DNA of 64,000 nucleotides. Source: Cyanidioschyzon merolae (Eukaryota). Position numbers and translations under genes: made by a program. Shown piece by piece: positions 15,721 through 64,000 of this stretch; position 1 is the stretch's first letter; each line of letters starts with the position of its first letter. Under the pieces are notes generated by a model that ran no database searches, was not told the origin of the DNA, and saw nothing but the letters and a program-made list of their open reading frames with translations. The DNA lies in the NCBI GenBank assembly GCA_000091205.1, contig AP006487.2; one strand, written 5' to 3'.

Positions 15721-16560
15721 AGGATTTGGGGCTGTTGGAGAAATATTCGCGAGTGCCACATCAACGGATAGGCATCGGGGTTCACCGCGTGGGAAACGTT
15801 TTCCTGGGACTCCCGAGCGTATACGTGCGGACAGAGCTAGTTTAAGCGTTCTGCTCGGCTGCTCAGTTAGTATGGTTTAACATGAACAAGCACGAGCCTG
15901 CATTATTGTGAGGTTCGACCGTGCAGGGTTACGCTGCCGCACTTGGCCCAAACCCCTCCATATTAAAGTGGCACTCAAACAGCACATGAAGTTACTGTGA
16001 GAGTCCTCAATCTTACGATTCAGAATCCAAAATGACTTGGCAGTAACCAGTAGAACGCTGGCGAGGGATTTAGCAGCTTCAAAGAAACTTAGTCGTCGAG
16101 ACGAGGTGCAGCATCACGGAGCCTGCGAACGGAGCTTTGAAGGATCACACAATATCTATGTTCGCGGGATCCTTAATTTTGCAGCGTAGGTTCTTGACGT
16201 GCTAGACGGAGCATCTGAGGGATATGCCCTCAGATACGAAACAGAGTGCGTTTACCGAGCGACGGCTCTGCCGCTTGAGCAGTGCGACCGGTCCACGAAG
16301 CACCCGGGCTTTATGATTGTAACAGGTATAATACGTTTACCAGAAGCGCATCTTTTTGTCTGCACTATTCAGAGACTTTACTTGTGCTGCCAACACTATT
16401 CTTGCAGTGCCGGGCACGAAAGGTTAGTACAATGAAGCGTGCTGTGGAACGCAGCACAGTAGTGCGCAGTAAAAGAGCATATCTTACCGCAACGCACATG
16501 TGCGTGTGTAGCGCCGTCAGGTCCATCATTAACAAAAACTACTCACTAACTACCAACTAG

Positions 16561-17125
16561 ATACCGAATTCGTTCCCCATCTACTGTAAGCGTTGAGAGG
16601 GGGAAAGCTTTCCGTATTTTCGAAAGTTTACCTTCCAGGCGGAGGATCACGCGAGAAGGACGAGTCTTCTGGGCTTGTGTTTCAAGCTCCTCCCAATGCT
16701 AGGTGATGTGGCGCGACTTGAGTGGCTCGTCCACAACGCAGTTTATTCTAGGACTAGGAGCGGGTATCCTGTGTCTGGACTTCGCCCTAGTCGCGGCGGT
16801 CTCCATGTGTATCACTTTGCACTGCCGCAGGCAGTAGGTCTCTCTGTACAGCTTGCGGGCTTCCAGAATGGTAATGAATCCCGATTCCGTTTCGAGTGGA
16901 CCACGCCTCGAGCCGATGCCCTTAACGGTATGGCAAAGCAGTTCTGTTTCTATGTTGCATCCGCACCTGCGCTATAGCCGCTAAGGCGGGTGCTCACGGC
17001 ATGCTCGGCGCACGATAGAACAACGAAACGACCAGTACATGCGAGAGGAATTATGGGTAATGGAACTTGAAGGTAAGGCGCATCATGGTGGACGCTTTCC
17101 CGAAAGCCAACATGGATCCCACAAT
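16561..17125 (+). repeat. Repeat family D copy D1, with a strongly conserved 3' module
   Basis: Homologous to 47925-48485. The 5' half is about 70-75% identical. The 3' roughly 210 nt (16895-17105) are about 95% identical, including CCGCTAAGGCGGGTGCTCACGGCATGCTCGGCGCACGATAGAACAACGAAACGACCAGTACATGCGAGAGGAATTATGGGTAATGGAACTTGAAGGTAAGG. Confidence 0.6.
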
Positions 17126-17601
17126 AAGCGATCCATGATCAATGTAAACCTTTTGTAAAACAAAAACTGAATGGAGCGTGAAAGAGAGCGCTTCGAACGT
17201 TTGGCCTTTACGAGCGGTTCATTGTCGGGTAGACTCTGCTGATGCCGCATGCGGGCGAACTTTGGTTGATAATCCGAACTAGTTATTTCGCCTGAAAGAA
17301 GTCTATTGCGAGAGTGCATATTCACGAGATCCTCTCGCTCAGAGTCTGTGAACACACAAGCAATCAGTTCCGAGGGAATAGTAACTTCACGTGAAACTCG
17401 ATCCCAGCCGATGGCCTTTTCGATTTGCGCGCAAGAGAGTGGAATCCCATACACTGATGCTAGCGACAAGCTTTTGACCGATACCACTGCCTTGTTTACG
17501 AGTAAGCGGCTGTGAACAATGCATAGCATCGATATTTGAATCCTATTGCAAGCTGATTTCGAAGACGCTTGGCGGCAACGCGGTTCCTGTGGATCCCGCA
17601 A
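17083..17601 (-). CDS. Hypothetical protein
   Basis: 172-aa ORF with no recognised motif. Its C-terminal end overlaps the tail of repeat D1. Confidence 0.2.
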   Translation of the reverse strand: MRDPQEPRCRQASSKSACNRIQISMLCIVHSRLLVNKAVVSVKSLSLASVYGIPLSCAQIEKAIGWDRVSREVTIPSELIACVFTDSEREDLVNMHSRNRLLSGEITSSDYQPKFARMRHQQSLPDNEPLVKAKRSKRSLSRSIQFLFYKRFTLIMDRLLWDPCWLSGKRPP

Positions 17602-19642: not shown

Positions 19643-19867
19643 AGCGCGGAGCGATCAAGCTTCCACGAAAGAGAGGCTCACAGCACAAAGACTGCCGCTA
19701 CCAAGGAATCAATCCTTTGTGCCTCCTCCGGCGATAATACGCGATCCAGTGCAGGCCAGACAGCTCTGGGACCAAAACGAATACGACACAAAACTAAACG
19801 AGGGGAACGCTTCCTCTGCAGTGTCCAGCAAAGTTCACTGAAACGAAAATGTCTCACGACTGTAGAG

Positions 19868-21400
19868 TAATTTAGTACCGACGCGCAGGCGGCCCCTAGC
19901 CATCTAGAACAGGCCTCCTGCTAATGGTTCCATTTTCTCCTTGCACACTTCGAGCCTGAGATGCTGCCCCACTAATTTCGATTGCGTCAGCTTCTCGGGC
20001 CTCGTCTTCAGCGCCGTACGTGTCCTTATATCGATAGCAGCGCTGAGGTCTCGATTCACGAACTCTACACAGGCTCTGCTGCAGGTAGCACTTACTTGGG
20101 CAAGGCGTCCTGGAACTCTTGCCGTCTGAGTGGTTTGCTGGCCTGTCAGCTCACCGTGCCTTTCTATCACCGACGCGTTCCGCTGGCGCCTCTCCATCTC
20201 GAGGTTCTGAAGTGTGTACCCCAGGTAAGCTCTTGGGCTTTTTATTTCTTCAAAGTGAACGCACTTGTATATGACCTAAGACAAGTTCTTACCGGAGCGA
20301 CAAGAACTTCTGGAAGAAAGTGGAAGTGTGCGCTTGTGTCACCGTGTGCTGCAAGCTTCAGCGATTTGCTCAATGGAGCGATCTTTACGTTTTACGATAC
20401 TAAACCCTCGTTAGATACTGTTGAACCTCGAAAAGTGTGGAGGAATGAAAATCAGCTCTATCCCGATAGATTTCGCTAAAGCTCAAACGCAAAGGGAATG
20501 TTGAAGTACCACCATGTCCAATACAAGGACGACGCCGACATCAAGGAAAATCCTTCAATGATTAGACAAAGTGGGTGCTGTTGTTTGAGCCTTCCCTACG
20601 AGCGAAACTGATGCTGCCAAACGAATCCAGCGCAGATGGAGCATGCGATGATATCTTCATTCTGTACGAGTTCAATCGTTCATACAGAGGGCTCGCTCTC
20701 CGCGAATACCCATAAACGTTCCGACCGTTTCGTCTGAAGAAAGTCTCATCGACTGCGAAAAACAAACCGACGTCCGTGGATGTCATGCGGATGGCTGAGT
20801 TCCAGCAACGCGGTCGTTGCGATTTCGTTGGAAGATAACCGTACGTGAACTACGATTTTTTGCAATCGTATCCCAGTGTTTTCAGGACCACACGAACTAG
20901 CTGTTGAGAAAGAGAGATGTCAATTGTTGCTACGATTGTTGCTGTTGCCTTCTGTAAAACGTGATCAACGACTCGTTTCCCACCGTTGACCACAAACACG
21001 CTTTGAAAAGATCGGATCTTGGCGGGGGCACATGTTCTTGTTTCTTTCCGTAATACCCGACCATCTGCTTTCTGTGGTACGACTGACCTGTAAGAGGAAT
21101 GCAGTCCCCCTTGCTCTGTTCAGCAAAGAATCTGTCCTTTAAGCAACTCGTCCGCGATCTACAAGGTACATTGCATAGTGATTTCGAACTTCTTCTCTTT
21201 ACTGCGAAATCGCATTCCGTCACACTCAGCGGGAGTGGAAAAAATGAGTTGAAAGACCAATGTGCGGATGCGGATACGATTCGTCGTACATCTTGTGTCA
21301 GCCAGTAGAGCTTTCTTGAGGCTACGTTTTGAAACTGGGACTCCCCCAACGTCTGAGCAACCAGGCTAACTGAGCATAAGTCTGGCAAGAGCCGCTTTGC
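19868..21400 (-). mobile_element. Family F copy F1: decayed Tc1/mariner-like transposon with a TnpB/Fanzor-like C-terminal fragment at its 3' end
   Basis: Minus-strand fragments include ...FFAVDETFFRRNGRNVYGYSRR, the first Tc1 DDE block (compare SDESKF). At 19904-20100 the fragment reads ...TCSRACVEFVNRDLSAAIDI... (CxxC plus a RuvC-III-like D.NAA.NI motif). It ends ...EVCKEKMEPLAGG followed by ...TAAATTAC. It is homologous to F2-F6. Confidence 0.6.
19904..20197 (-). pseudogene. TnpB/Fanzor-like C-terminal fragment (CSRAC plus NRDLSAAIDI) within F1
   Basis: ...RLAQVSATCSRACVEFVNRDLSAAIDIRTRTALKTRPEKLTQSKLVGQHLRLEVCKEKMEPLAGG. A Cys pair immediately precedes the RuvC-III-like motif, as in TnpB (C..CG...DRDxNAAxNI). 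Confidence 0.5.
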
Positions 21401-25647: not shown

Positions 25648-28131
25648 GACTAGGGAGAGCACGGACCGTGAAGTTTCCCGGGAACCTCTAACGCAGCCAG
25701 CGCTGAAACAACGTTCGACGTCGACCTATACGTCACAAGCAACGTTCATGTGTTCTATTGCGCACCGCGGCGGAGGCGACGACTACGCCCGCTCCCATTG
25801 TACCAAAGTGTCCCTTAGATCTAATATAGTACATAAATATTAAGGCTCAGATTCGGATGCATGCGTCGATCGCTGCGGAGCGATCAAACCGGTCGATATT
25901 TCTTATCGATCGGACAAGTTTACATTGGCAGGGGATCCCGCCTGCTGCATTGAGGTCGGCAACTAAGATAGCGTCCATTTTTCCACGCCGTGCCTACAAG
26001 TTGCCTCAGCCAATGTACATATATCACCTGTGTGATACTGGTCATTTGCGCGCATCACCGTGCGACATGCCAGCCGTAAATGCCCCTCAAACCGCCTGTT
26101 GCGCGGGCAGAGATACCGCACGGCTACAGTACGGATTTGCTCTACGTTTGAGGGCGCCATCATGAGGCGCGGTTCATCTGACGCGGGCACAGGTTTGCTG
26201 TGGTGCCGGGATCCATGAGGCCGCTCGGGAAGGCCTACAGAAGGCGTTAGCGTGAATCGACACACTGGTTGACCACGGCTTCCATAGCGGCACCGAGACA
26301 TAGGCCGCACACTTCGACTTCCGGATAAAGTATGTTGCGGAACAGCCGGTCAGGCCTCGCCAAAGCACCTACCACTGGGCCAGAGGAGGCGCACGGTTTA
26401 CGAGCTCCCTGTGGACTCGTCCTGTTCTTGGGAACTTCCGTTGACAACATAAAGTTGCGATCATACGGAAAACGTTCTCATCTTTGAACTCTTGACGTGG
26501 ACGAGGAAGCCGTTATCATGTTGCTCGTTAGAGATCATTTAAAGTTCTTTGGGAAATTTTCAACTAGTTAATGGTATGTTTGCGCACCGATGACGATGCA
26601 TACTGCCACGCCATCGGGCTCGAGACAATGCAATGTGAATCCTGGCTGCGTTGGGACCCTCCCGTTCCTGCCGTTTTCCCTCTCGCACCTTTCTTTTGAC
26701 TCCTTTGCATACCGTTCATGCAGCTTTTTACGAGTGCTTTCGAATCTTCAGGCGGAAATTGCGTAGTTCGCTAAATGAGCTCCAATTCAGCGATCAAGAC
26801 CACTTCTTCGAGGCTCATGTCCTGTAGGCGCTTCTGTCCCGCCTTCGTACTGGTGCACCCTCCAAAACAGAAAAAAGCACGAACGGAAGCGCCGGTACAT
26901 GAGAGCGAGATACGCGATCGCAGAAGACGAAAGATTCTTCCCTCTAGAGAATCTCTGGAGCCGCGCTCTGTATGCAAGGCTACCGTCGCTTTCGTGGGCG
27001 AGTTACTCGCTGATGGTAGGTCCACCTTTTCCTCGGCGTCTTCATCTTTGAGGAATATTCAGTGAATGTTCATCCCGCTTTGTCTCCTCCGAGCCCACAA
27101 GCTTCAAAAAGCGCGCAGTATGAAGCGCTCCTTCATGCCGCGCATGCTGGTATCCTAGTCGTCGCTGTTTCATCATCACGTCATCGAATCCAAAACGCGC
27201 TGGTGGGGCTAAACGCTGACATGGTTCATGGCCGCCGCGGGTAGTTTTCCGCCCACGTACTTCTTTATACTATCCAGACCACTTTTACCCACCATGCGAG
27301 TGATGCCCTCGTCTTCCGAGAATTCGTTCACTGGGGAACTGATGAGCGCACTGCCTCGATCAAAGCAAGGACCAGATGAGGATTGTTCGATTTGTATTCG
27401 AGAAGAGTGAGGATATGGTGGGCCGTCCCTGCCAACAACGCCTCTAACAATTTCCTCCCTTGTGTAAGGTCACCAACGCATTGGATTTACGGTGTCTTGA
27501 GCATAAGGTACGCGCATCGCTGAAGCTTTCTACAAAGAAGTGCGTATTTCCAGACGTGGACTACAATTTCTGGTAAGCGCATATGTGTTTCGAGGCATCT
27601 CCTAAGACAGTAGAGTAGAGTGGCGATAAGTGCAGATGCGTATCCAGAAGGGTTCCCGGGAAATGAGCTTTCTGGTGGAAGGCGCTACGTCCATTAGTGG
27701 CGAATTTCTTGGGTCGCAATACACACCTCTTTTCCAAACACTTCGAGATATCCTTTTTGCCCTTTCAGCGTTGTTTCGCTGTCATACATGGAGTGTTGTG
27801 GCTGTGCACCTCCTCTGAAAACAAAATATATGTATTTTTTATAATTTTCGTATTCTCTTTTCTTGATGCCCCTTTGAGAAGGCGCGATCAGCAAACTTCT
27901 ATAGACTCGGCAAAATAATCTCCAGCGAGCTGGGCGGCTGTAATCACTGCGGGAAGAGCAAGGAGCGCCAGTTCGTTTAGTAGAAGATCCGAGGCACAGA
28001 AACGTCCATTTGCTTCCCTGAAGATGTTCTTCAGCGCCTGAGGATATTCTTAATCCCGTTGATCCATGGAGAATAAATCGAAGTGTGTAAGATGAACAAT
28101 GCTCTCTTCTGGGGGTTTTCCGACCAGGAGA

Positions 28132-31879: not shown

Positions 31880-32147
31880 GAGTCACAAATCTTGTGCGAG
31901 ATTGCCTTGCCGAGACCAATAAAATGACTCTGATAAGACTGTCGACTGAACGCCAGAGCGTCAGATCCTGGTGAAATCCTGGTTATGAACAGGTCAATGC
32001 CGAATTGATGTGGCACTCAAAATAACAGAAGCAGGGGCATGCGCATGATGAATATGAGCCCACCGAGTCTGCAGCCCATACTGGTGATCGTGTAAGCTGG
32101 AACAATTGTATTCCACGCTCAATGGAGCGAGAAAGTTTCGCGACCGA

Positions 32148-33450
32148 TGGGTAATTATATATCTACCCGCAGACGCCTCCCAGTCTTTTTTGACTGGCCC
32201 CCTGTTATCGGTTTCAGCTTCTTCTTGTACACCTCGAGCGTCAAAGGCTGCCCCACGAAGCAGGATTGCGTCAGCTCCTCGTGTCTCGTCTTCAACAACA
32301 CACACCATCTGATATTGACGACGGCGTCGAAATCTTGCTTCACAAACTCCTTGCGTTTGTTGCCTCTGATTGGACTCATCAATGCAAGGATTGCTAGAAC
32401 TCGTGCCTCTGTGCCACTACAGTCACGTCATTGTCCCCTAGACTAGACACCCTCTCTCGCCCATATCCCTTCTTCTTCGTCAATCGCTCTTCTCCGCTCT
32501 ATGGTCGGCGAGAAGAGGATATTTTCGTTGTTTCTCCGACAGCTGGCCACGACGGTCCTCCGGGATCGTCGAATTCCATTTCCATACCTTTGCCATGGAT
32601 ATTTTATTTCTTCAAAATGATCGCACTTCTTCATGCCCTCAAGTGAAAACCATTTCTCAGGGAAGAGCACTTGCTCAAGGAAGGCATAATGTGCCCCGGT
32701 ACAACCGTGTGCTGCAAGCTTCAGCGATTCCCCGAGTGGAGCGATCTCCACGTTTCACGATAGGAAACACATTCCTACGATGGGCTTGAACCACGGAGCG
32801 TATGGAGGAATGAAAAGCAGGTCTGCCCCTATAGCATCCGCAAAAGCCCAAACGCAAGGAGAATGGAAAAATACCACAATTTCCAGTAAAAAAGATATCG
32901 CCAGACGTTGGGAAAAGCCTTCAATGGCTCATTGAATTGGGTGCTGTTGTATGAGTCTTCTATAGGTGCGAAACTGATACCGCCAAACGAATCCACTGCA
33001 GCTGGAACAGATGATGTCGTCGTTCTCTTCGAGTTCGATCATATGTACATCGGGCGCCGTGCACTGCGAATACTCACACACGCTTCGATAGTTTCGCCCA
33101 AAGAAAGTCTCATCGACTACAACAAACGAACCGACGTGCGTGGACGTCATAATGATCGCTTATTTCCTGCAAAGCTTTCATTGTGATTTCGGTGGAAAAT
33201 CGCCGCACTTGAACTAGGACCTTTTTTCAATTGTATTCCAATGTTCACAGGAGCTCACGAGCTAGCTGTCGAGAAAGAGAGATGCCCATTCTGGCTACTA
33301 TCATAGCTTTTGCGTTCCGTAAGCTGATAAACGTACCGTTTTTGTACTATAGACCGAGATCAGTTTTTAGAAATATCTGCTATTGGCGCGGAGCGCATCT
33401 ACTTGTTTCTTTCAGTGTTCCTCAACTATCTGCGTACTGCGGTATACCTG
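32148..33450 (-). mobile_element. Family F copy F2: Tc1-like relic with a TnpB/Fanzor-like 3' fragment
   Basis: Minus strand: MTSTHVGSFVVVDETFFGRNYRSV (first D block) ... QDFDAVVNIRWC ... GQPLTLEVYKKKLKPITGGQSKKTGRRLRVDI, then ...TAATTACCC at 32148. The 5' region at 33380-33430 is homologous to F6 at 40290-40330. Confidence 0.55.
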
Positions 33451-33599
33451 ACCAGTAAGACGAGTACAGCCCGCCTTGCACCGTTCAGTACAGTATGTAT
33501 ACCCTACACGCAATTCGTTTACGAAATTTACGGCCTACTGGATACTGATTTCTGTTTCTTTCTCTTTTCTGTCAAATAGCATTCTGTTACACTCAGCTC

Positions 33600-34400
33600 G
33601 GGTGGAACAAAATTAAGCTAATACCTATGAAGAAACATACTCCGCGGACTCAACTCTTTTCTGTGTTGTTTACGTGGAAAAGTCTATTGGATGCAGACTT
33701 GAGTCATCCGGGGGATATCGTTAAGTGGTGAGCGGGTCAGCGTTTTGCACGAGGGGAGCGTTGACGGATCGCGATTTCTCGTATTGATATCTTACCTGGG
33801 GGTTCCGTACAGTACTTTATCGCATTCCACAAATATTCTATCGAATGCAACAACGAGCACTTGCACTTGTGGCGAACAGAGTGCTCTCCGAAGCGGTCGA
33901 TGAAAAGAAACATGGTCTTAAGATACGTCGCCAGGCGCGAATACGGAGGAATGCACAAGTGGGACCTTCCTGTACATGTTGAGAGTATGTTTTGAGCAAT
34001 GAAGTTCACGTTCACGAATTGAGGTATGAGACGCAGAGGAGTTAGTGTGGGGTTTGTAAGGCACTATAGCATCACGGCTACGTGTCACAGCAATGAAAAG
34101 TGCATCTCTGGTATATGCGCAGAAGATGAATAACGCGAAGCACTCGTTGGTCGCATGGCCTGCATGAGCATGAATTCCCTGGCGAATAGTCGGAAGCAGC
34201 GAAATCGGGAGTTTAACGCTGCCATCAACGTTCTCAGACAGCTGACAAGAGAGCTGGAGGTACAATAGAGACCGGCGTATTCGAAACAAGAAATATGAGA
34301 GAAGAAAAGGAAGCGGTCGCACGAAGTACCCGTCAGGCCACTGTGTATAACAGTGAGAAGGAAGCCAAAGCAAAGAGGTAACACCTACGGTAGGGAACCT
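33600..34400 (-). mobile_element. Second, more degenerate Tc1-like transposase remnant adjacent to F2
   Basis: The minus-strand ORF contains ...FIDRFGEHS...LLHSIEYLWNAIK, reminiscent of the Tc1 DNDPKH and NPIEnLW motifs. Heavy decay makes this a tentative call. Confidence 0.3.
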
Positions 34401-39043: not shown

Positions 39044-39134
39044 CGACTGCTATCGGGACGCCAAACGGCGCCATCAAATTTCAGACTGAGACTGCATTTA
39101 CAGATCACTGGTGGAGCGAAATAGTTTCTGTTCT

Positions 39135-40340
39135 TTCTAGGATAGACTAATATCCACCCGCGGACGCCTCCCGCCCTTTTTTGGTCGCTCCCCTACTACC
39201 GATTCCAGCTTCTCCTTGCACATGTAAACCCTAAGAGGCTATCCCACGTGGTTTGGTCGCTTCAGCTCCTTGGGTCTCGTCTTCAGCACCGCACATCGTC
39301 TGATGCTGCTAGCGGCATTGGAGTCCCTGCTCACGAACTCCAAGCTTGCTCTACCTCTGATGGAAGTCATTCACTGAAGGATTCTTCGAACTCGCGCCGT
39401 CAGTGCTACTTCCTGCTCTGTCAGCTCTCCGTGCTTTTCTATCGCAGAAGCGCTCCGCTGGGTTCTCTCCATCTCGACCTTCTGAAGCGTACACCACAGA
39501 GCATCCCCTCGATTTTTAAAACGAACACAGTTGTTTCTGACCTTATAAACGGACATTTCCGGAGGGAGAAGCACTTGCACAAGGAAGACGGGAATTGCCA
39601 CGGTGTCATCGTGTGCTGAACGCCTCAGTGATTTGCCCGGTGGAGCGATCATTACGTTACGCGACCGAAAATCTTTCTCCGATAGGCTTGAACCATAGAG
39701 CGTACGTAGGACTCAACCAGCTCTTCTCCCCGATAGCATCGGCAAAAGACAAAACGCAAGGTGAATGGTGAAATGCCATGTTTCCAGTAGAAAGACATCG
39801 CCAGACGTCAGGGGAAAGTCTTGAATGATTCAAGGAATTGGGCGCTTTCGTATGAGCTTTCTCTACGAGCGAAGCTGATAGCGCCAAATGAATCCACTGC
39901 AGCTAGAACAGTTGGTAAGCTCGTTCTCTACGAGCTCGCTCGTACACCGAACGGACTCCATCTCCGCGAATAACCAAAAACGCTCTCACCGTTCCGTCTG
40001 AAGAAGCCTTATCGACTGGAAAAACAAACCATCGTCCCTCTGCTTCATATCGATCGCCGAGTTCCGAGAAAGCTGTCGTTGCGATTTTGATGGAAGATGG
40101 CCGTGCGTTGACTAGGACTTTTGTTGCGACTGCATTCCAGTGTTTCCACGGCCACACAAATAAGCTGGTGAGAAACAGTGACGCCCCTGGGAGCCTTCCA
40201 TCGTCGCTTTTGCTCTCCATCAGGTGGTCAGCGGGTCGTTTTCTACCATCGACCGCAAGCACGCTTTGAGGGTATCTGTTTTTGCAGAGCAGCGCATCTA
40301 TTTCTTTCTTTCAGTGTTCCTCAATAATCTGAATACTGTG
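39135..40340 (-). mobile_element. Family F copy F6: Tc1-like relic with a degraded TnpB/Fanzor-like 3' region
   Basis: Minus strand: ...WFVFPVDKASSDGTVRAFLVIRGDGVRSVYER (first D block, D to K variant). Its 3' terminus, read on the minus strand, is ...AAGGAGAAGCTGGAATCGGTAG...AAAAAAGGGCGGGAGGCGTCCGCGGGTGGATATTAGTCTA. This matches the conserved F terminal module. Confidence 0.5.
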
Positions 40341-41248
40341 CCATGACTGGCACGAAGGAGGATTGCAGTGCTCTGTGCACTGTACAGTCAAGATATATAT
40401 CCTACAGGCAATTCTTCTACGAGATATGCGGTACACTGCATCAATAGTTCGATCTCCAGTTATCCACCGCTGTAGCGGTGGTACAAAATGGATTTAAAAG
40501 ACTACAAGTGCAAGCTGCGCGCCATTTACCCGCTCGGTAATCCCTTTAGCATTTGTTCTGACATCGCTGAACGATGGCAGGTTTGCGCGAAAACCGACTC
40601 GTGTCGAGTATATTCCGCGGCGCACATCTAGTCAATGTGGCTTTCTATTCGCTTGCTTAATTCTGAGGAGCGTGTTGCGGAATCCGCATAGAATCCCTCC
40701 CAAGACAAACCCGATGCTTCACATACCGTTGAAGCAGACAGGGACCTCGTACTGCCTTGCTTACTCGATACCACCGAAGGAAAGCCCTCTTTGCAGACAG
40801 TTAATGATCGTCATATCTGTTGCCAATGAGTTGTTCTGCTTGCATGTATAGAACAGTGTCCGCAAATAGTTGTTTGATCGTGACAGGTACGGAGTCGTTG
40901 ATTGTAATGTGACGCTTTACTTCGGCCCCAAACTTCCGCTTCAATAGCCCCTTTGAGATGTTTCAACTCTAAAGGTGCACAGCTTAGAGGGGCTGCCTGC
41001 TTCCATTTTTCCATAGGGTACACTTTCTTCGCCGTACTATTGCCGGAGAATCTTCCGCGCTCGCCGCAACTCGTCGACTTGATTGCAACCAACACAGCAG
41101 CACCCCCAGCACTTTCAGCACTCCCAGCACAGAAGGTTCAGCGCGACGTCTTGCTATTAATGGAAATCGGATAAATGTCACCAGATGCCTATTTTGTTTA
41201 GAGAGACATTTTTATGAACGATGGAAAAATTTTGCGTCCGCGGAGTTA

Positions 41249-44824: not shown

Positions 44825-44959
44825 CGGTTCGGAATGAGGAGCACGTGCTCGCGCAGTCTGGATCCCCGGATCGAAAGACGGCTTGATGCAGGTGATGACG
44901 CCTTTCGCCTCAATCGTGTTCCACAATCAGATGCGTGTAACCACATGGGTTTTCGCGTT

Positions 44960-45475
44960 GTATGGCAGATGGGTTAGAAGTGCGTTCATTTTCGAAAACA
45001 AAAAAAAATCCAAGGGAAAGGTATGGACGTGAAATTCGGAGGTCCTGAACCGCCGTCATCGCCAGGTTCGAAGACGAAACGAAACAATCCTCTTCTCGTC
45101 GACCATGAACCGAACAAGAGCAAGTAGTGACCACGATGAAGACGAGAGGATATAAGCGAGAAAAAAGTTTTGCCCAACGGGACGACGACGAGACTGTAAC
45201 GACACAGAGGGCGCGGGTTCGAGGAATCCTCGCACTTATGAGATCAACCAGAAGCAATAAACACATGGCGTTCGTGAACCGAGACTTCGACGCCGCCATC
45301 AATATTGAACGATGTGTTGCGCTGAGGAAAAGACCCGAGGAGCTCGCGCAATCTATCATTGTGGGACAGCCTTTCAGGCTCGAAGTGTGAAGGAGAAGTT
45401 GAAGCCCATAGCAGTCGGTCGGTCAAAAAAGGCTGGACAGCGTCTGCGCATGGGTATTAATTTACCCTGCATGGT
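44960..45475 (+). mobile_element. Family F copy F3: solo 3' fragment carrying only the TnpB/Fanzor-like piece and terminal module
   Basis: ...QRDDDETVTTQRARVRGILALMRSTRSNKHMAFVNRDFDAAINIERCVALRKRPEELAQSIIVGQPFRLEV, then AAGGAGAAGTTGAAGCCCATAGCAG...AAAAAAGGCTGGACAGCGTCTGCGCATGGGTATTAATTTACCCTG. The transposase part is missing. Confidence 0.55.
45127..45390 (+). pseudogene. TnpB/Fanzor-like C-terminal fragment (RuvC-III-like NRDFDAAINI) within F3
   Basis: 87-aa ORF ...HMAFVNRDFDAAINIERCVALRKRPEELAQSIIVGQPFRLEV. The D.NAA.NI pattern is the hallmark RuvC-III motif of TnpB, IscB, Cas12 and Fanzor. The upstream zinc-finger cysteines are mutated (STRSNKH). Confidence 0.5.
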
Positions 45476-46589
45476 CGTCGGACATTTTTTGTTCCGCTGA
45501 TCTTGCGTATGCTCTAAATCGGGTACAGCGCCTAAGCGTGTCGGATCGTGATCCCCTACAGACATCGCGCGCGAAGGTACCCCGAATGCAATTACCGCGT
45601 CATCGATTGGGATTCTCCATTCTGATACGGATTGTTCAGCGAATCAGAACAGCATGGTCGTGAAAAAAAACATACGGGCTCTCGGTGCAGAGCTGCGCAT
45701 GCAAATTTCCCCTGGTCGGAAGTCGCACTCGCATGCGGAATGATACAAGATGCCTGAAAACGGAGTTCTTTGGTGTACCACGCATAGCGGACATCTCGTC
45801 CGAGAGCGTCCATGCATACTTACATTCCATTCTTGTCGTATATCGTGGAGATGATGCAGGCGATACAATTTCCGGCCCTGGAAGACGTTGACAAATTGAC
45901 TTGGAGCTTGCCTGGGAGGGCTTCAAGCAGAGCTTGTCTGTTCCGCGGGCGATAGCAGCCTCGTACGATATTCTTGAGGACCGCTTCATACGGTGGTGCC
46001 TTCCGCTATATCGAAACGGAAATCGGCACTGAGCTTGCTTCCGTTTGTTGAGAAATGAACGAGAAAATAAACGAAACTATAAAGCAGGTAGAAGAACAAG
46101 AGCGCGAAGCAGCCCAGTTTCACTTGGCTTTGCCTCCTCGCCAGCGGAAGCACATTGAACGCACTCGTGCTTTCGAAAACGTGTCGATGCTGCATCCAAC
46201 GTTTGACGTTAAGGTACACCAGAGGGGCTAGCGTTAAACCTACGATCCAGTGGCCGCCAACCAGCAAGACCGCGCACAGTAGTCCCTCTGCAGAATATTC
46301 AGGGACAACGAGCTTGTTCAAGTTTTCTGTAAACTCTATCGGATTTACATAGTCTTGTTCCAAATCTTTGCAAAGAATCAAAAACATAATATTTATGAAC
46401 AAAATCCCAACCGTAAGCGTGAAACTTATGAGCCAATACAATATCTGAAAAGCTATAGACATTGCTTCGATTCAACAAGCGAAATTCAATCCTTTACATT
46501 TGGTTGCGCTGTGTACCAAGTAGTCGAAATCAATATGCGATCCATCCTCTGGATCGAAGGCGAATTGCCTGTAGGATATATGTTTTAAT

Positions 46590-47885
46590 GAAAAGTGCAA
46601 GGATAACTGTATTCCTCCTTCAGGTCAGCGATACCACAGTACCTAGATGGTTGAGGAACACTGAAAGAAACAAGTAGATGCGCTCGACGCTAAAAATCGA
46701 TATTCACAAAGCGTACTTAAAGTCAATTTTAGAACAAGACCCGTTGGTAACCTTATGGGACGCAAACGCGACGATAGCAGCCTCAATGGGCGTCTCTTTT
46801 TCTCAACCGCTTATTCGTGTGCGCCTGATAACACTGAGATTCGCTCGCCAAGAAGAGTCCTAGTTCAACCAAAGCTATCTTCCACTGGAATCGCAACGAC
46901 AGCGTTCCTGGAACGTCGCTATCGGTGGGAAGCGCAGGGACATCGGTTTGGTTCACTCGATGTAACTTTGATCTGACCAGATGTTCGGACCGTATATAGG
47001 TATTCGCCGAGCAGGACTCCCATTGTATGCACGATCGAACACGAAGAGAACGACAACATCATCTGTTCTAGCTGTCTTGGACACATTTGGCGGCCTCAGT
47101 TTCGCTCGTCGCGAAGGCTCATACAACAGCACCTACCACTTTGTCGAATCGTTGAAGGCCTTTTCGTTTGCATCCGAGCTTTTGCCAAGTCTATCGGGGA
47201 GAACTACCGTTCATTCCTGCGTACACTCCGTGGTTCAACCTCACAGAAAGAAGTGATTTCTATCGTGAAAAGTAATGAGCGCTCCACTGGGTGAATCGCT
47301 GAAGTCTTCAGCGCGGTGACACACAGGGACATATTTCATCTCTCATTGGCAAATCCGTGTCGCTCAGAGAAGGTCCTGACCTAAGGGCATCAACAATTGC
47401 GTTCATTTGAAGAAAGAAAAAGTCCAAGGGAAAGGTGTGGACATTGAAGTCGAGGATCCTGGAGCCCGGTCATCGCCAGCTGCCGGGAGAAGAAAAATCT
47501 CTTCGCGCGGACCATCGAGCGAAGAAGATCAAGCGACGAAGAAGAGGAAGGAGATAGGCGAGAAAAGGTTACGCCTGACGGGACGATGACGAGACTGTGG
47601 TGGTACAGAAGGCACGATTTCTAGGATTCCTACGAGTCCTGCATCCCAACAACGACAATGCACACAGTGAGCTCATAGGCCGAGACGTCAACGCCGTCAT
47701 CAATATCAGACGATGTGCGGTGCTGGACATGAGATTCGGCGAGCTGACGCAATCCAACTTTGTGGGGCAGTTTCTCAGGCTCGAAGTGTAAGGAGAAGCT
47801 GAAGCCGATAGAAGAGAGCCGTTCGAAACAGACTGGGAGGCGTCTGCAGGTGGATATTAATTTACGCTGGACTGCAAGAACCAAA
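46590..47885 (+). mobile_element. Family F copy F4: Tc1-like relic plus a TnpB/Fanzor-like fragment
   Basis: An HTH-like region (ATIAASMGVSFSQPLIRVRL) is followed by transposase remnants, then a K/R-rich segment (KGKGVDIEVEDPGARSS...KKRKEIGEKR). After a frameshift comes RDDDETVVVQKARFLGFLRVLHPNNDNAHSELIGRDVNAVINIRRCAVLDMRFGELTQSNFVGQFLRLEV. The terminus is AAGGAGAAGCTGAAGCCGATAG...GGTGGATATTAATTTACGCTGG. Confidence 0.6.
47597..47791 (+). pseudogene. TnpB/Fanzor-like C-terminal fragment (GRDVNAVINI) within F4
   Basis: ...NAHSELIGRDVNAVINIRRCAVLDMRFGELTQSNFVGQFLRLEV. It is colinear with the F3, F1 and F5 fragments. Confidence 0.5.
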
Positions 47886-47924
47886 TCTAACCGCTTATTA
47901 GCAACTCCATAACAATGCCGTTCG

Positions 47925-48485
47925 ACCTGTATGTTAAGAGTTGAAAGGGGGAAAAAGTTTCCATATTTTCGAAAGTTTGCCCTCCAGGCACATGGCCCCG
48001 CAAGCCCGACGAGTATGCCGGCGAATGCTTCAAGCTCTCCCTGGTGGCAGGTGCTTTAATGAGATCTAACCAGCTAGTCCGATACGCAGTTTATTTTGGG
48101 ACTAGGAGAGGATATGATATGTCTGAGCGGCGGCCTGGCCGCAGTGGACTCCTAGTATATCGCTTTCCGCTGCCGCAGACAGTACGTCTGTCTGCACAGC
48201 TCTCAGACTCCCAGAATGAATACGCACTTCGAGTCCGTGTCAGATGCACCACGCCTCGAGCCGACGCCCTTAACGGTATGGCAATGCTGTTCTGCCTCTA
48301 TGTTGCATCCGCACCCGCGCTATAGCCGCTAAGGCGGGTGCTCATGGCATGCTCGGCGCACGATAGAACAACGAAACGACCAGTACATCCGAGAGTTAGT
48401 ACGGGGAATGGAACTTGAAGGTAAGGTGCATCATGATGGACGCTTTCCCCGAAGCGAATATCCATCCCGCAATCTGGGATCCATT
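47925..48485 (+). repeat. Repeat family D copy D2
   Basis: Homolog of D1, immediately downstream of the F4 terminus. The 3' roughly 210 nt (48250-48462) are about 95% identical to D1. Confidence 0.6.
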
Positions 48486-48563
48486 GTCAATCTAAAGGTT
48501 TTGTCAAAAACAATTGCTGCGCGGATCGGCCGTGAACATACACGCGTGCCATAGAGCTTATCT

Positions 48564-52662: not shown

Positions 52663-55600
52663 AACCGCTGCGAGTCGCGAGAGCACCAATGTTGGCCCCT
52701 TCTTTCCATGGAGACCGGCAGGATGCAGTGCTGGTTGCGGGCGCGGTTTGTAGCCAGATGACGTGCTGTTCGGGCAATACAGTCTTTGGAGTTGCAAAAA
52801 GCAGTCCGCTGTACTCTTGCAGGTGACTTTTAATGCTGTATTAAGATGCACGGGAAGTGGACCCATCTTAAATGCCTCATCCCTGCTGCGAAGAACAAAG
52901 AACGGCATCGTGTGCACTCGTTGAGGCGATGCAGCTTCGCAGATTCTAGCGAGAATATGATTGTTCTTGAGACGATCGCGAGCTCCTCATAGAGCCCTTC
53001 AGAGCTCGAGTTTCTCTTGAGACTTGCTGTATTCTAATATATCGCTGTGACGCCTATTGCGAGCTGAGATGTGGAAGCGAGCGAGTATATACTTAATAAT
53101 ATTGACTAATGGAACTCCAATCTTGTTTTTCAATTGCCAAGAATAATCATCCGCAGTGTGTATATACGATGCGTGAATCTTGCTGTGTCGATGAGCATTA
53201 GCGTAAAAATGCCTTGCCCCAGGTGAGTATCCAATACTCTCTCTTCTGCATACTGATGTTTTTACCGGAATTCTTCTGCGTATCAGCACGATGCTCGCTC
53301 TGAGTACGAAACGATTACGTCGAAACCTCGTCCGCCACAAAAGCCGCTGAAACCTCCCGAAGCACGTGCCATTTCCGGTAAACGACCGTGGCGTTAATGC
53401 CGCGGGGCATAAAGAGCTCGCGTGCATTTTTGCTCGAGGAAAGACTCCATCGCGAGCCTACCCGCCTCGATATCCCCGCCATCTGATGCTCGGTCAGCTT
53501 CCCGTACACCATCTCGAGCGCCCGGCTCTGTTTCACGCTTTACTTCTCTACCAGTATCAGCGTGCACCCGTGCTCGCCATGCACGTGTGTCGCCCTGAGC
53601 GCATCGGTAGGACTCGCACAGAATCCATTCCTGTACTCGTTCTACGCGCTCATCGAAGGCGCAGGTGTGCAGTCTTTCCATGCATAGCATGTCCAGCGCT
53701 ATCGGCTTGCGCCCAGCAACTCTACCTATGGTTCATTTCCTTGACCATTTCGATGAAGAGTTTCTCGAAAGCGCGATTATTCCTTCTGTAGACACGAAAA
53801 TGTTGGTGATCCCGACACGGTCTCATGTAAACCTGCGAAAGCTCTTTCGCATGAGCCATATTATGGATGAGTAATATCTGGATGCAGCGCACAAAGCATC
53901 CGCCTCTATTCGAGGCTGCCACCACTGCGTCTATGTGGGTCTTGGCGCCATTCTTGTACTTAATCGCGTCTCCTGGTGACCTTCATACCTGACTCCAGAT
54001 AATATCGAGCCTTGAGGAAGCTTAGCAGGGGCGCTTGTGTTCCTTTTGAGGTCTTTGGTTGCCTCCTCTTGAATTGGAGAAACGGCTATGGCCATGACAC
54101 CCTTCAAACAGGGAACAAAGCTTACCACGAAGTCTTTCTCATCATTTGTCTTGAACGGTTGAGAATGGGGCAACTTGGTCAGTTCCGGCAAAGGTATCTT
54201 GAAGTACATGCAAGCGAATATTCAGGGAGTCTCCATTGTCACAGTAAACTTGCGTACATTTTCCCTGTAGACGAGAAACCTTGAACGAGCTCGGCCAGCG
54301 CTCTTCTCGAAGTCATTTGAATGCTTCTTGCTTACAGAGACCAGCAGCAACTAACTACTCGGGCCATGCAATTTAGTAAATAAGTGTCCACCGTGGTATA
54401 CTGGGTCTTTACGTGACGTGCGTGGACCCCATCCAGTAGGCGCTGTATCTCACTTTTAAGAACAGTCTCCCCGATAATGTGTTCCAGTAGGTAGCCCATG
54501 AAAACGGTCCCAGCATTACCTTTCCGCTCCGCGAGTACCTCATTCCTGTCCTTCGTCGTCCTCTTTTCGGAAGTATCTTTCTCATATTGGTCCGGGAGAT
54601 TCTTCTTCTTCCCTTTTCCTTTGGGTTGCTTCAAGGATTTTGTAACTGTACCCCATATCCGTTTTCATCTCGAGACTAGATCATACTCGGTGGACGCTCG
54701 GACTGCATCTCGCCTGTTCTACACATGTGCATAATATTTCTCATGCACCTGTTCGTCGTGATCTCGGTTAAGAGCACGCGCATGGACCGAAGCACGCTTT
54801 TCCGGTCTCTGTTGCGCGCGGATAGAGAAGCAACACATCAGTCCACGGCTGGCAAACGTTAAGAGCAACCGGTCGACGAAAGATTTGTGGAAAACGTTTG
54901 GTGAAAAGGGTGCAAACGACTCGTCTTTTGATCCGTGAGCGTGAAACTGGCTTTAGACAACGGAGGCGAATCCTTCGCCTGGATGGAGCTGCGTAAGAGA
55001 GGCTGGCACGAAGAGCAGCCCCTTGCGCATCCCACCTGCGCACTTGATGAGCGCTTGAGTGCTGTTGGAGCTTGCGTTGACTGGGAGCAAAAAAGAGGAA
55101 TTTTAAAAGAAAAGCCACGAATTTCTTCGAAGAAGAATTTGGTATAGAACAATGCTGTCTGTTTGGCGAGCAGTAGGCGAACGTATGATTGAATCGCCGC
55201 CATGGCTGCATTCGTCGCAAAGCTCGCTTGTCTTGTTATACCGAACAGCGATTTGCTCTTCTTTGACCATCCATATATTGCCCAACAACTTCTCCAACAC
55301 AAATTCCCATCAACTGAAACGCACAATTGTGCCTCAAGTAACATGCGTTCACGTTTCAGTACGAAATTGATTATACGTGTTGTTCAGTGCGTGACGGTCT
55401 CCCATTGAAGTCTGCCATTTCTCCTCTGTCCGTGGCTCTTCATCACTATTCGTATCAACGGTAAGGAAATTTCGCATCCAGTGGCTCCTTTGATAGCACT
55501 TCTCAGAGAACGTATAGAAAGGAATGGAGTGACGAGGAGACTGCTGCGAACACAGAGTTCAATAATTTCTGTTTTGGGAGCACCATGTTGAGGATTCTTA

Positions 55601-55944
55601 CTGCGAGAAGGGTGGTTCTTCAACCTGCTGACCGAAGAATCACTGAACTGCACATGTGAATCCGTTTCTTTCAAGCTTGCATTGAGTGTATAAAGCCCTT
55701 CCGTAACCGTTCCCCTATCTGCAGGATGTACACCTTATGCCGAATGCCTGAAAAAACAAAAACCAAACGGGTGCGTGTTGGTGCATGTGTTCTAGAATTC
55801 TCTGTTCTGTATCTAACGCCGCACATATACCAAAACGTTCAAGCGGAGACTCAGTGCGGCACGCGGAATGCAGAGAGGCTCTGAAAATGAAGCGCATCTT
55901 CAATTTAACTCCAATCCTGGATTCGAATTTCTGAATGAAATTAC

Positions 55945-61317: not shown

Positions 61318-61849
61318 ATTTGCTAGAAGCGAAAACGTCGCTAAACAAGAAGAAAGCTATCGCAAGTGCGCAGACGATTGAATCGCAAGAAGTAACGACT
61401 CTTGACGATCTTTTCCACCAGCTGAGCTTCTTTTCCTCAAGAAATAGAGCCTAGCTTGCTCAAGGTAGTGGAGGCGTTGTCTAGGGCGCTTTCTGCTTGC
61501 GCCAGACGCACCGCTCAGTTGGGATTATTGCCGCCGCAGGTACACCTCCGTTCCTTTTCCGAGGATATGCAAAATGCCACTACGGTTTGTAGTCGTCCAC
61601 GAACCGGTTGCATGGAAGCGCTAGGCTTTTGCGCAGTACGCACAGAAGACGGTAGTGTTGTCCGCTCTGACTGGCTCAGTCTCAGCGAATCATAGGCATA
61701 TGGCGCGCAGGAGAGAGCATTACCACTTGTAAGTTGCTATAGTCATTCAAATCAATTGTTTTCACCCGAGCTGCGATGTATAGCCGGAGATCGTAATCAT
61801 GATGCAGTGTAGAGTACAGACTATAGACGAGCTGCCTGGTGGATCTGTT

Positions 61850-63200
61850 CTTCACTGAAAAGTGCATGGAGGTCTGCATTCCTCCTTCAGCTCAGTTATG
61901 CAACAGGACTCAGATGGCTGAGGAACTCTGAAACAACCAAGAATACGCGCTCCGCGCCAAAAGCCGATATTCTCGAAGACTGGATGCGGTCAATGGTAGA
62001 AAACCACCCGTTGATCACCTGTTCTGGAAGGAAATAGCGACGATAGTAGCCACCATGGGCGACTCTGTTTCCCACCAGCTTGTTCGTGTGGTGCTGAAAA
62101 CTCTAGGGTACAGTCGCTAAAGAGAGTCCGGGTCCACGCATGGCCATCTTCCACCGGCACCAAAATGGCAGCGTTCCTGGAACTCAGCGATCAGTATGAC
62201 GTCCACGGACGTCGGTTTGTTTTTTCCCAGTCGATGCGGCTTCCTTCGGACGAGGCGGTCGGTGCGTTTATGGGTATCCTCGGAGATGGCGTCTGTGCTA
62301 TGTACGAACGAACTTGTAGAGAACGAGCATGTCATCAACTGTTCGAGCTGCAGTGGATTCTTTTGGCGGCCTCAGTTTCGCTCATAGACAAGACACATAC
62401 AAGAGCAGCAACGAATTCGTCGAATCACTGAAGACGGTTCTCTGACGTCTTCTGACAACCCTCTGTTGGACAACGTGACATTTCACGATTCTTCTTGCGT
62501 TCGAGTCTCTGCAGATTCTGTTGGAATAGAGCCGCTTTTCATTCCTCCGTACGCGCCGTAGTTTAACGCCATCGAAGAAGTCTTTCTTATCGTCGAACGT
62601 GGTGATCGCTCCACTGGGCGAACCGCTGAAGCTTTGAGCATATGCTGACACAGGAGCATACTCCTTCGTTGTTTTTCAAATCCTTCTGCCATCGGGAAGG
62701 TCCTCAACTGAGCTCAAAAAACAAGTGCGTTCATTTTAAAAAATAAATAATCCAAGGAACAGTTATGGACATTGAAGTCGAGGATTCTAGAGGCCTGGTG
62801 TCGCCAGGTTCGAAAAAGAAACGAAAAATCCTCTTCTCGCCGACCATCGAGCGAAGGACAGCATATGCTGAAAAAAAAGAGAAAATGAGGTGAGATAGGC
62901 GAGAAAAAGTGTATACCCGACGGGACGATGACGAGACTGTAGTGGCACAGAGGGCGCGAGTTCGAGGACTCCTTGCACAAATGAGCTCCACCAGCTGCAG
63001 TAAATGCTTGGAGTCCGTGAACCGAGATTATAAGGCTGGCACCACTATCAGACGATGTCTGGTGCTATAGACGAGACCCGCGGAGCTGACGCGAGCCAAA
63101 TTTGTGGCGCAGCCTCGTAGGGTCAAGGTATACAAGTAGACGCTGACGCCGACAGTAGGGAGCGGGTCCAAAATGTCTGGAAAGCGTCTACGAATGGATA
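61850..63200 (+). mobile_element. Family F copy F5: Tc1/mariner DD34E relic plus a TnpB/Fanzor-like fragment (CxxC plus a degraded RuvC-III-like motif)
   Basis: Transposase N-terminus ...RQKPIFSKT (compare Tc1 RRKPLLSKK). Second D in LLDNVTFH (compare lvlDNasiH). Exactly 34 residues later comes PPYAP*FNAIEEVF (compare PPYSPDLNPIE), so it is DD34E with an in-frame stop. Downstream: K-rich KKKRK, then RDDDETVVAQRARVRGLLAQMSSTSCSKCLESVNRDYKAGTTI. Confidence 0.65.
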
Positions 63201-63447
63201 TGTACATATCTTGTATTGTAGCGGAGCATTTCCTCTTCCACTGACGATGTATGTGTAAGAACTGTGTTCGCACGTTGCTGTTCATCACAACATCCCGTGC
63301 AAGAGTCGTAGGCCGCAAATGAGGTGATCGCAGTTGTATACAAATTTGTGTAATATCCACAAAAGGTCGCCTGCGCACGCACCCGACTGGGAATTTGAAC
63401 GTCGCGCTTCGTTTCCTGTAATACACCAGGATCGTTTCGAACTTTTC

Positions 63448-64000
63448 ATGGGTATTCAAGGCCTCTTGCCCATCATAAAACCAGTCTGCTTCCGCAGACA
63501 CATATCCGACTTTGCTCAGAAGCGGGTCGGCGTAGATGGCTACAGCTGGTTGCACAAGAGTCTCGCTGGCTGTTGTATAGCGTTGGACCGGAGTAATGGC
63601 ACGACAGCTCCACGCGTAGAGCGTACAGAACGTTTTGTTGAAAATTTTCTGGGTCGCGTGCGTATGCTGCAACACTACGGCGTCTCGCCTTTGATTGTTT
63701 TCGACGGGGGAAGAATACCTGCTAAAAGTGAGACGGAAAAACGTCGAGCAACGCTCAGAGCAAAGAATCTGGAGCTTGCTACGCAAGCGCTGGCTCGTGG
63801 TGAAATAGAACTCGCTCAGAGCTTTTTGCAACGCTCTATCGACGTGACCCCTGAAATGGCTTACGAAGTTATTAAAGCTCTTCGGAAAGAAAATTTTGAT
63901 TTTCTCGTCGCGCCGTATGAAGCAGACGCTCAGCTGGCGATGCTTTCTAGAGAAAATCTCATCGACCTCGTTATCACTGAAGACTCAGATTTAATCGTCT
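63448..64000 (+). CDS. EXO1: Exonuclease 1 (EXO1), N-terminal XPG-N/XPG-I domains; partial, continues beyond the window
   Basis: Translation from the ATG at 63448: MGIQGLLPIIKPV...VGVDGYSWLHK...PLIVFDGGRIPAKSETEKRR...FDFLVAPYEADAQLAMLSRENLIDLVITEDSDLIV. The MGIQGLL start, the VFDG...P.K block and the APYEADAQLA / ITEDSDL XPG-I signature are diagnostic of the EXO1/FEN1 family, closest to EXO1. It is not in the ORF track because it has no stop within the window. Confidence 0.85.
   Translation, partial: MGIQGLLPIIKPVCFRRHISDFAQKRVGVDGYSWLHKSLAGCCIALDRSNGTTAPRVERTERFVENFLGRVRMLQHYGVSPLIVFDGGRIPAKSETEKRRATLRAKNLELATQALARGEIELAQSFLQRSIDVTPEMAYEVIKALRKENFDFLVAPYEADAQLAMLSRENLIDLVITEDSDLIV

Follow-up and report, generated by a model that had tools for sequence, protein, structure and literature searches.

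Dead Tc1-like transposon copies with CMe-1-type Fanzor1 remnants in Cyanidioschyzon merolae, a red alga

Fanzor1 nucleases have been described inside autonomous Mariner/Tc1 transposons, in which the guide RNA overlaps the right terminal inverted repeat (TIR) (PMC3627910, PMC10530073). PUl-1 and PUl-2 of Pythium ultimum and PGv-1 are Mariner elements that encode both a Mariner transposase and Fanzor1 (PMC3627910), and the group named 'Fanzor1c' is associated with Mariner/Tc1 (PMC10530073). In the characterised Fanzor/TnpB systems, the guide RNA overlaps the Fanzor 3' or right-end region (PMC10530073). From Cyanidioschyzon merolae, Bao & Jurka (2013; Mob DNA 4:12, PMC3627910) described the 3169-bp consensus CMe-1A encoding the 734-aa Fanzor1 protein CMe-1, and this element was reported to have no TIRs and to be of unknown class (PMC3627910). 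Here, we analysed a 64,000-nt stretch of C. merolae DNA (contig AP006487.2; the whole stretch is called the window) that contains six dispersed copies, F1 to F6, of a repeat in which a remnant of a CMe-1-type Fanzor1 gene forms the 3' part and, in five of the copies, remnants of a DD34E Tc1-type transposase precede it. We consider it very probable that F1-F6 are dead insertions, decaying neutrally, of a DNA transposon with two genes, from which they were derived by internal deletion.

Six decayed copies with transposase and Fanzor1 remnants

When the segment 61701-63400 was compared with the window by blastn, five further copies were detected with 69-71% identity (E=1e-16 to 1e-171), and the pairwise identities among F1-F6 were 67-72% for all pairs. 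The repeat family is real and old, and the dispersed six-copy family listed in the first-pass annotation of this DNA was borne out by both measurements. We determined the outer boundaries from a multiple alignment including extra copies on other contigs, and the positions given in that annotation lie 30-150 bp inside the refined boundaries. The copies are as follows (deletion types b to d are defined in the next section).

F1: 19829-21257, minus strand; type b, transposase and Fanzor codons ~613-717
F2: 32114-33624, minus strand; type c
F3: 39101-40502, minus strand; type b, transposase and Fanzor codons ~613-728, TA at both ends
F4: ~44900-45507, plus strand; type d, ~0.6-kb double-deletion copy resembling a miniature inverted-repeat transposable element (MITE), TA at the right flank
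F5: ~46453/46524-47870, plus strand; type c, left boundary uncertain (46453 or 46524)
F6: 61742-63249, plus strand; type c, with left end, decayed DD34E transposase, Fanzor N- and C-parts and right end

Beyond these boundaries the flanks are unrelated from copy to copy, and therefore it was the whole unit that inserted repeatedly. In F5, a repeat similar to TE-N2_CMe at 47876-48506(-) takes the place of the right tip, and a right end for F5 derived with Mafft was discarded as spurious, the stretch being this repeat. No long open reading frame (ORF) is present in F1-F6, the longest own-strand ORF of F6 being 88 aa, and the protein matches to each copy are scattered across several frames. A pairwise divergence of ~30% corresponds to a decay of roughly 15-20% in each copy. 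All the window copies are dead, and neither transposase nor nuclease can be produced by any of them today.

Transposase remnants are present in five of the six copies, F4 being the one without them. The frame-stitched transposase consensus matched DDE_3 (Pfam PF13358) with E=1.1e-18 and 67.9 bits, the curated cut-off being 28.6, and aligned with amino acids 1-272 of an intact 302-aa transposase from a brine-metagenome contig (locus L004), which is likewise annotated as DDE_3, at 47% identity (E=4e-53). When we counted directly from the second Asp (LLDN) to the Glu (IEE/VEG), the distance was 34 residues both in F6 (LLDNVTFH...FNAIEE) and in the intact L004 protein (LLDNVAFH...YNPVEG). The DDE_3 match and this count confirm the DD34E Tc1-type assignment made in the first-pass annotation. 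Matches to N-terminal helix-turn-helix families were weak (HTH_Tnp_Tc3_2, E=6e-4; HTH_23 and HTH_33, E=0.02-0.1) and all below the curated cut-offs, and the L004 transposase also gave a faint HTH_Tnp_Tc3_2 match. The Mariner-type transposase of PUl-1 matched the window consensus at 27% identity (E=3e-12) and the L004 transposase with E=1.7e-16.

All six copies end in a Fanzor1 fragment matching the C-terminus of CMe-1. In a tblastn search of the window with the published CMe-1 protein, all six were matched at 40-56% identity (E=1e-11 to 1e-28), and the CMe-1 residues matched in F1-F6 are 1-55 and/or ~613-734. Pfam alone could not settle the identity of the tail. When the tail alone was searched, only a sub-threshold Cas12f1-like_TNB match of 11 residues was obtained, as was the case for relatives of 220-270 aa, and the Cas12f1-like_TNB/OrfB_Zn_ribbon model stayed below threshold even at the best value, E=5e-4, which came from full-length relatives. 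Searches of the Protein Data Bank (PDB) with the tail and with the short-fragment profile A1, using phmmer and hmmsearch, returned nothing relevant, and phmmer with the single relative P0088 against the PDB returned only spurious dehydrogenase matches. Profile chaining was therefore needed. First, the 155-aa tail consensus matched 81 short proteins in a collection of 5.8 billion proteins, and the longer of these reach upstream via ...LVVAYGAGRW...IDEFRTSYTHHELGC...RMEFVNRDFNAAINI. Second, a profile of six tail matches gave 816 matches among 1.84 billion representative proteins, many of them 590-705 aa long and matched at their C-termini. Third, a full-length profile of 37 members matched the Fanzor1 structures in the PDB (9cf0, E=5e-17; 8gkh, E=2e-9; 9cer, E=1e-3), with alignments spanning the RuvC-I GxDPG, the (D/E)EFRT(S/T) and the NRDxNAAxN(I) ... 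RP..L.R tail. Finally, hhalign aligned the window tail consensus with the 37-member profile at RuvC-III with a probability of 98.5% and E=2e-15.

A TnpB/Fanzor-like C-terminal tail with a RuvC-III motif had been recognised in the first-pass annotation, and the hhalign alignment, the PDB profile matches and the CMe-1 tblastn matches agree with this reading; as to family profiles, the Fanzor link came through the chained profiles, while the Cas12f1-like_TNB/OrfB_Zn_ribbon model of Pfam fell short of its threshold. The Cys pair that had been placed 4-5 residues upstream of the motif occurs only in F1 and F6, and the other copies and intact CMe-1 read S-T-(T/R)-x-(D/G)-(N/G)-K at this site. No CxxC stands beside RuvC-III in those copies or in intact CMe-1, so that a C4 zinc finger is not present there. 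The Cys pair is decay noise, and the CMe-1 lineage appears to have a degenerate zinc finger (THHELGC...EKC). As had been noted, the rest of the nuclease is gone: the complete RuvC active site and the WED/REC part are deleted from F1-F6; among the relatives, CMe-1, P0088 and L083 have them. The window copies are Fanzor remnants, not Fanzor genes. The string KCVHFEEIK, considered as the Fanzor motif IDEFRTS, was rejected; it results from translating the non-coding spacer that precedes the Fanzor ATG.

Deletion types, relatives and origin

The deletions were mapped by aligning each copy to CMe-1A and to L083, a metagenome locus in which a transposase stands directly upstream of a full-length, decayed Fanzor. 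The single architecture that the first-pass annotation had given to all copies was not found; the copies fall into three derivative types, with F4 lacking the transposase and with two Fanzor deletion end-points among F1-F6. Type b (F1, F3, and L006 elsewhere) retains the transposase, and its deletion runs from ~8 nt before the Fanzor ATG through codon ~612, so that in F3 the Fanzor ATG and N-terminus are deleted; the type b tail reads ...LGYTLQNLEMERRQRN..., corresponding to ...LGCTLQRVEMEKCQRS... of CMe-1. Type c (F2, F5 and F6) also retains the transposase, and here codons ~640-734 follow directly on the Fanzor ATG and the first ~55 codons (MDIEVED..PGSKKKRK...DDDETVV). The join, ...DDDETVV(A/T/V)Q(R/K)ARV/F..., is open in one frame in F4, F5 and F6 and degraded in F2. 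In F6, the start codon and ~55 N-terminal codons occupy 62765-62944 and codons ~640-728 occupy 62933-63196 in frame with them, the N- and C-terminal CMe-1 matches being 168 nt (56 codons) apart. The type c deletion, from codon ~56 to codon ~640, was in frame. Type d (F4) combines the type c Fanzor deletion with loss of the transposase at exactly the CMe-1A junction, and in it, as in CMe-1A, the spacer ahead of the Fanzor ATG directly follows ~70-75 nt of left-end sequence. An interpretation of F4 as a 5'-truncated copy was rejected, as it carries the CMe-1A-type transposase deletion. The Lys-rich stretch of the first-pass annotation does exist, but it is an A-rich non-coding spacer read as protein together with the Lys-rich N-terminus of Fanzor, in which KKKRK resembles a nuclear localisation signal.

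We then looked at relatives in metagenomes. A scan yielded at least 352 CMe-1-type Fanzor stretches in hot-spring-type JGI metagenomes, and 80 loci were taken for comparison. Most of the 80 loci contain a full-length, often broken Fanzor without a transposase, as in CMe-1A. The transposase half of L083 shows 78% DNA identity to the window consensus. The 3.7-kb L004 contig encodes the intact 302-aa transposase and, after 157 nt, an intact 699-aa Fanzor on the same strand. The longer, nuclease-encoding relatives predicted in the first-pass annotation were thus found in L083, L004 and the many CMe-1-type Fanzor stretches. The window itself holds two further relics.

G1: 11160-14141, minus strand; older, heavily decayed member of a different, more distant family with an undeleted transposase-Fanzor1 layout
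G2: 53354-55731, minus strand; divergent relic with a transposase and the Fanzor C-terminal ~200 codons

G1, which the first-pass annotation does not list, matches L004 transposase amino acids 6-229 (E=1e-12) and then P0088 amino acids 21-161 and 293-678 (E=2e-16); its Fanzor is near full-length, with the C-terminus ...SLWCDST...HPDINALINIQKCLMLP. G2 matches transposase amino acids 1-273 (E=3e-23) and its Fanzor part gives E=6e-11; it is a third, independent internal-deletion end-point. The G2 insertion beside chorismate synthase is also present in the metagenome contigs L001 (99.9%), L002 (97.4%) and L003 (96.8%), and therefore it is common to related strains. Taken together, a reciprocal deletion series exists in one lineage, with both genes, transposase only, Fanzor only, or neither.

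Some further features of the related loci were observed. L005 (positions 3-2045) carries a near full-length CMe-1-type Fanzor with one stop codon, and its RuvC-I reads GAGPG instead of GADPG; with this substitution the catalytic Asp is lost, and the copy is likely inactive. In L011, L022, L025, L039, L048, L051, L053 and L082, a partial Fanzor copy stands head-to-head with a full one; the partial copy consists of C-half residues ~17-150 and N-half residues ~370-436, inverted and directly upstream, and the arrangement recurs across contigs. The public gene calls P0004 and P0072 on related contigs are decayed Fanzor tails with names such as 'adenine-specific DNA glycosylase' and 'transposase', and in the chimeric call P0084 a Fanzor tail is combined with a domain of signal peptidase S26. 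These three calls are annotation artefacts caused by the relics.

With regard to the ends, the left boundary in most copies is a TA followed by G(T/C)CTTTCAAC..., and the right boundary in several copies is ...TTCC(A/G)CTGA(N5-7) followed by TA. F3 and F6 have TA at each end, F2, F4, L032, L052, L023 and L072 at a single end, and F1 at neither, a pattern that in these few copies is compatible with ~17% per-site decay. The composite left boundary lies 75 nt upstream of the transposase ATG, and the right one lies downstream of the remaining Fanzor part. A search for TIRs inside each copy gave nothing above shuffles; on visual inspection, the right end of CMe-1A, ...TTTGAAAGGC, mirrors the left G(T/C)CTTTCAA in inverted form over ~10 nt, with 8 of 10 positions in agreement. 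A TIR and a TA duplication are likely, although unproven.

The first 635 bp of CMe-1A correspond to the repeat TE-N2_CMe, copies of which, 81-82% identical, occupy 16531-17156(-) and 47876-48506(-) of the window, with a weak one at 26119-26531(+). In the metagenome loci this repeat often adjoins Fanzor element ends, which hints at a target preference. The right end of CMe-1A-type copies reads ...TTTGAAAGGCG followed by TT(T/G)G or TTGNTG-like sequence in ~30 of 37 distinct copies (L007-L086), and two variants of their terminal hairpin occur in different registers, CGTTTTTC-TTTT-GAAAGGCG and CGTTCGA-CTT-TCGAACG. These flanks and hairpins suggest either that the element has a few more bases or that its target is sequence-specific.

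We suggest that the ancestor would have been an element of ~3.3-3.9 kb with a short left end (TA, then G(T/C)CTTTCAA...) followed first by a DD34E Tc1/IS630-type transposase of ~300 aa, and next by an A-rich spacer of ~50 nt, a 734-aa CMe-1-type Fanzor1 in the same orientation and, no more than ~60 nt past the Fanzor stop, the right end. Internal deletions would have produced derivatives of types b, c and d, which then transposed as units, and the published CMe-1A would be the reciprocal form, in which the transposase was lost and Fanzor kept. Types b and c may once have been autonomous cut-and-paste Tc1-like elements that used their own transposase after shedding the Fanzor passenger, and F4 and CMe-1A may have relied on a transposase in trans. 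That the family might descend from an internally deleted Fanzor-carrying Tc1 element had been proposed in the first-pass annotation, and this origin is supported by the undeleted layouts of L083 (decayed), L004 (with intact ORFs) and G1.

The alternative proposed at the same time, that the Fanzor tail is the working C-terminal domain of a transposase, can be examined from the reading frames. The metagenome ORF P0048 (locus L006) runs continuously from an overlap with the transposase 3' end into the Fanzor tail, as expected for such a fusion; however, its N-terminal part is an alternative frame over the transposase 3' end. The transposase stays in its own reading frame as far as a C-terminus that is homologous to that of the L004 protein, with high-scoring segment pairs reaching amino acids 272-297 of 302, and the Fanzor tail is in another frame, so that the tail motif is not the native end of the transposase. 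In addition, the type c copies retain the Fanzor ATG and N-terminus between both genes, and the spacer is a non-coding A-rich region upstream of the Fanzor ATG that is also present in CMe-1A. We therefore reject the fusion, the chance of which we regard as almost nil.

We also considered that an independent Tc1 element landed in or beside a Fanzor-only CMe-1A, the two never having formed one mobile unit. In the related metagenomes CMe-1A-type copies vastly outnumber composites, a transposase immediately ahead of a full-length Fanzor is seen at one of the 80 loci (L083), L052 being a deleted composite, and CMe-1A copies have a different, longer left boundary, all of which would fit a nested insertion. 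On the other hand, the six window copies and L006, L052, L023, L072 and L032 share outer boundaries while their flanks are unrelated, and therefore the composite moved as one unit. Moreover, the segment absent from CMe-1A is essentially the transposase ORF alone and leaves no room for TIRs of its own, the first 75 nt of the composite left end are found inside CMe-1A, and L004, G1 and PUl-1, all distant, have the same arrangement of two genes. We consider a nested insertion improbable.

Here, we need to consider several observations that weigh against derivation from a TA-targeting two-gene transposon by internal deletion. First, TA on both sides is seen in F3 and F6 only. Second, no convincing TIR was found, and the consensus left and right ends showed no inverted or direct similarity to each other above shuffles. 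Third, the CMe-1A-type copies are flanked at the right by TT(T/G)G-like sequence, not TA, and most of their left boundaries lie ~140 nt further out or include TE-N2_CMe, so these copies may have been mobilised differently. Fourth, the guide RNA that the retained 3' part might encode received no covariation support when minimum-free-energy pairs were scored on 38 copies, 46 of 500 shuffles equalling the observed score. Finally, the opposite course of events, in which a Fanzor element acquired a transposase ORF, would in principle be conceivable, and the sole pointer to deletion over capture is the same two-gene layout in the distant L004, G1 and PUl-1.

Guide RNA and the retained 3' end

The stump of the Fanzor 3' end most simply survives because deletions compatible with transposition must spare the right end, which lies within ~60 nt of the stop codon. 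Under the deletion origin, the last ~95-120 Fanzor codons would have persisted in all derivatives since they adjoin or contain right-end sequences required in cis. If the characterised systems are a guide, this surviving part may also encode the scaffold of a guide RNA (omega-RNA/fRNA).

When the 3' 255 nt of CMe-1A were folded and compared with shuffles, the z-score was -2.6, which is modest, and the segment ends in a terminal hairpin. RNAalifold of the retained 3' region gave 8 pairs with essentially no covariation, and an Rfam scan of the window gave no matches. The window subfamily is without the sub-terminal GCCGCC/GGCGGC hairpin of CMe-1A. Conservation along CMe-1A copies was flat at 0.86-0.89, with 0.81 in the non-coding tail and no 3' peak. 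In a codon-position analysis of Fanzor copies, the ratio of divergence at position 3 to that at positions 1 and 2 was up to 4.5, and the Fanzor protein is clearly under purifying selection among copies. Over the final 180 nt of the ORF the ratio falls to 1.4, with slightly lower third-position divergence there, and with respect to a guide RNA this relaxation is suggestive only.

These data bear on the possibility that the Fanzor 3' segment was kept for its omega-RNA, which the Fanzor of CMe-1A would load in trans, giving homing or retention of the deleted copies. Three or more deletions that arose independently (types b, c and G2) have left both the Fanzor 3' end and the right end in place, the guide RNA overlaps the same region in characterised systems (PMC10530073), and the fold of the CMe-1A 3' 255 nt, its terminal hairpin and the dip in third-position divergence all point in this direction. 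However, internal deletions of a still-mobile DNA transposon must spare both ends, for which no RNA function is needed, and covariation was no better than shuffles, Rfam gave no match and the window subfamily is without the CMe-1A hairpin. We judge such guide-only hitch-hiking very unlikely. A wider version, which we rate as only slightly less unlikely, would be that the last ~100-200 Fanzor codons and the right end form a self-contained guide-RNA module borrowed by Fanzor-less elements and by the F4-type MITE, with Fanzor supplied in trans from the abundant CMe-1A copies. If true, labour would be divided between reciprocal derivatives, one giving the transposase and the other giving the RNA-guided nuclease.

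Comparison with described elements

This family was published earlier as CMe-1/CMe-1A (PMC3627910), and since Fanzor in Mariner/Tc1 is established, it forms no new category. The finding is a real but essentially ordinary relic and the result is incremental, with modest gains. It appears to have been previously unstated that CMe-1A carries the left-end stub of a DD34E Tc1-like element and that transposase-bearing relatives exist. CMe-1A looks like what is left of a DD34E Tc1-like, TA-targeting element with two genes after deletion of the transposase, so that a class is now offered for it, with L083 and the window copies as its transposase-bearing relatives. The reciprocal deletion series is a natural system in which to study the contribution of Fanzor to transposon persistence, as the Fanzor ORF is under purifying selection across many copies, whereas the transposase-only derivatives died. 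For annotation, loci of the F1-F6 type should be masked as transposon relics, not called as genes. As for the surroundings, the window has long intron-free housekeeping ORFs, in keeping with the Cyanidioschyzon-like red-algal host to which the CMe-1 and TE-N2_CMe matches point. An XPG/EXO1-type nuclease gene (MGIQGLLPIIKP...) is present with its 5' part at 63440-64000(+), ~190 bp past the right end of F6, and leaves the window.

Compared with CMe-1A, the window copies have in common ~75 nt of left end and the spacer that precedes the ATG. The two differ in that CMe-1A has a full 734-aa Fanzor and no transposase, whereas the window copies kept the transposase in five of six cases and have a gutted Fanzor, a shorter left boundary and, in several copies, TA flanks. 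The solved Fanzor1 proteins of Parasitella parasitica (9cf0), Spizellomyces punctatus (8gkh) and Guillardia theta (9cer) match the full-length relatives by profile. The identity is low at the sequence level, the zinc finger of the CMe-1 lineage is degenerate, and the window copies keep the last ~95-120 residues and cannot be nucleases. With PUl-1, finally, the family shares a DDE transposase of ~300 aa followed by Fanzor1 on the same strand in one unit, flanked here by TA in several copies, and the transposases are homologous. In contrast to the clear 24-bp TIRs of PUl-1, those proposed here are ~10 nt long and the Fanzor of the window copies is mostly lost, and while PUl-1, PUl-2 and PGv-1 have an oomycete or a virus as host, the host here is a red alga.

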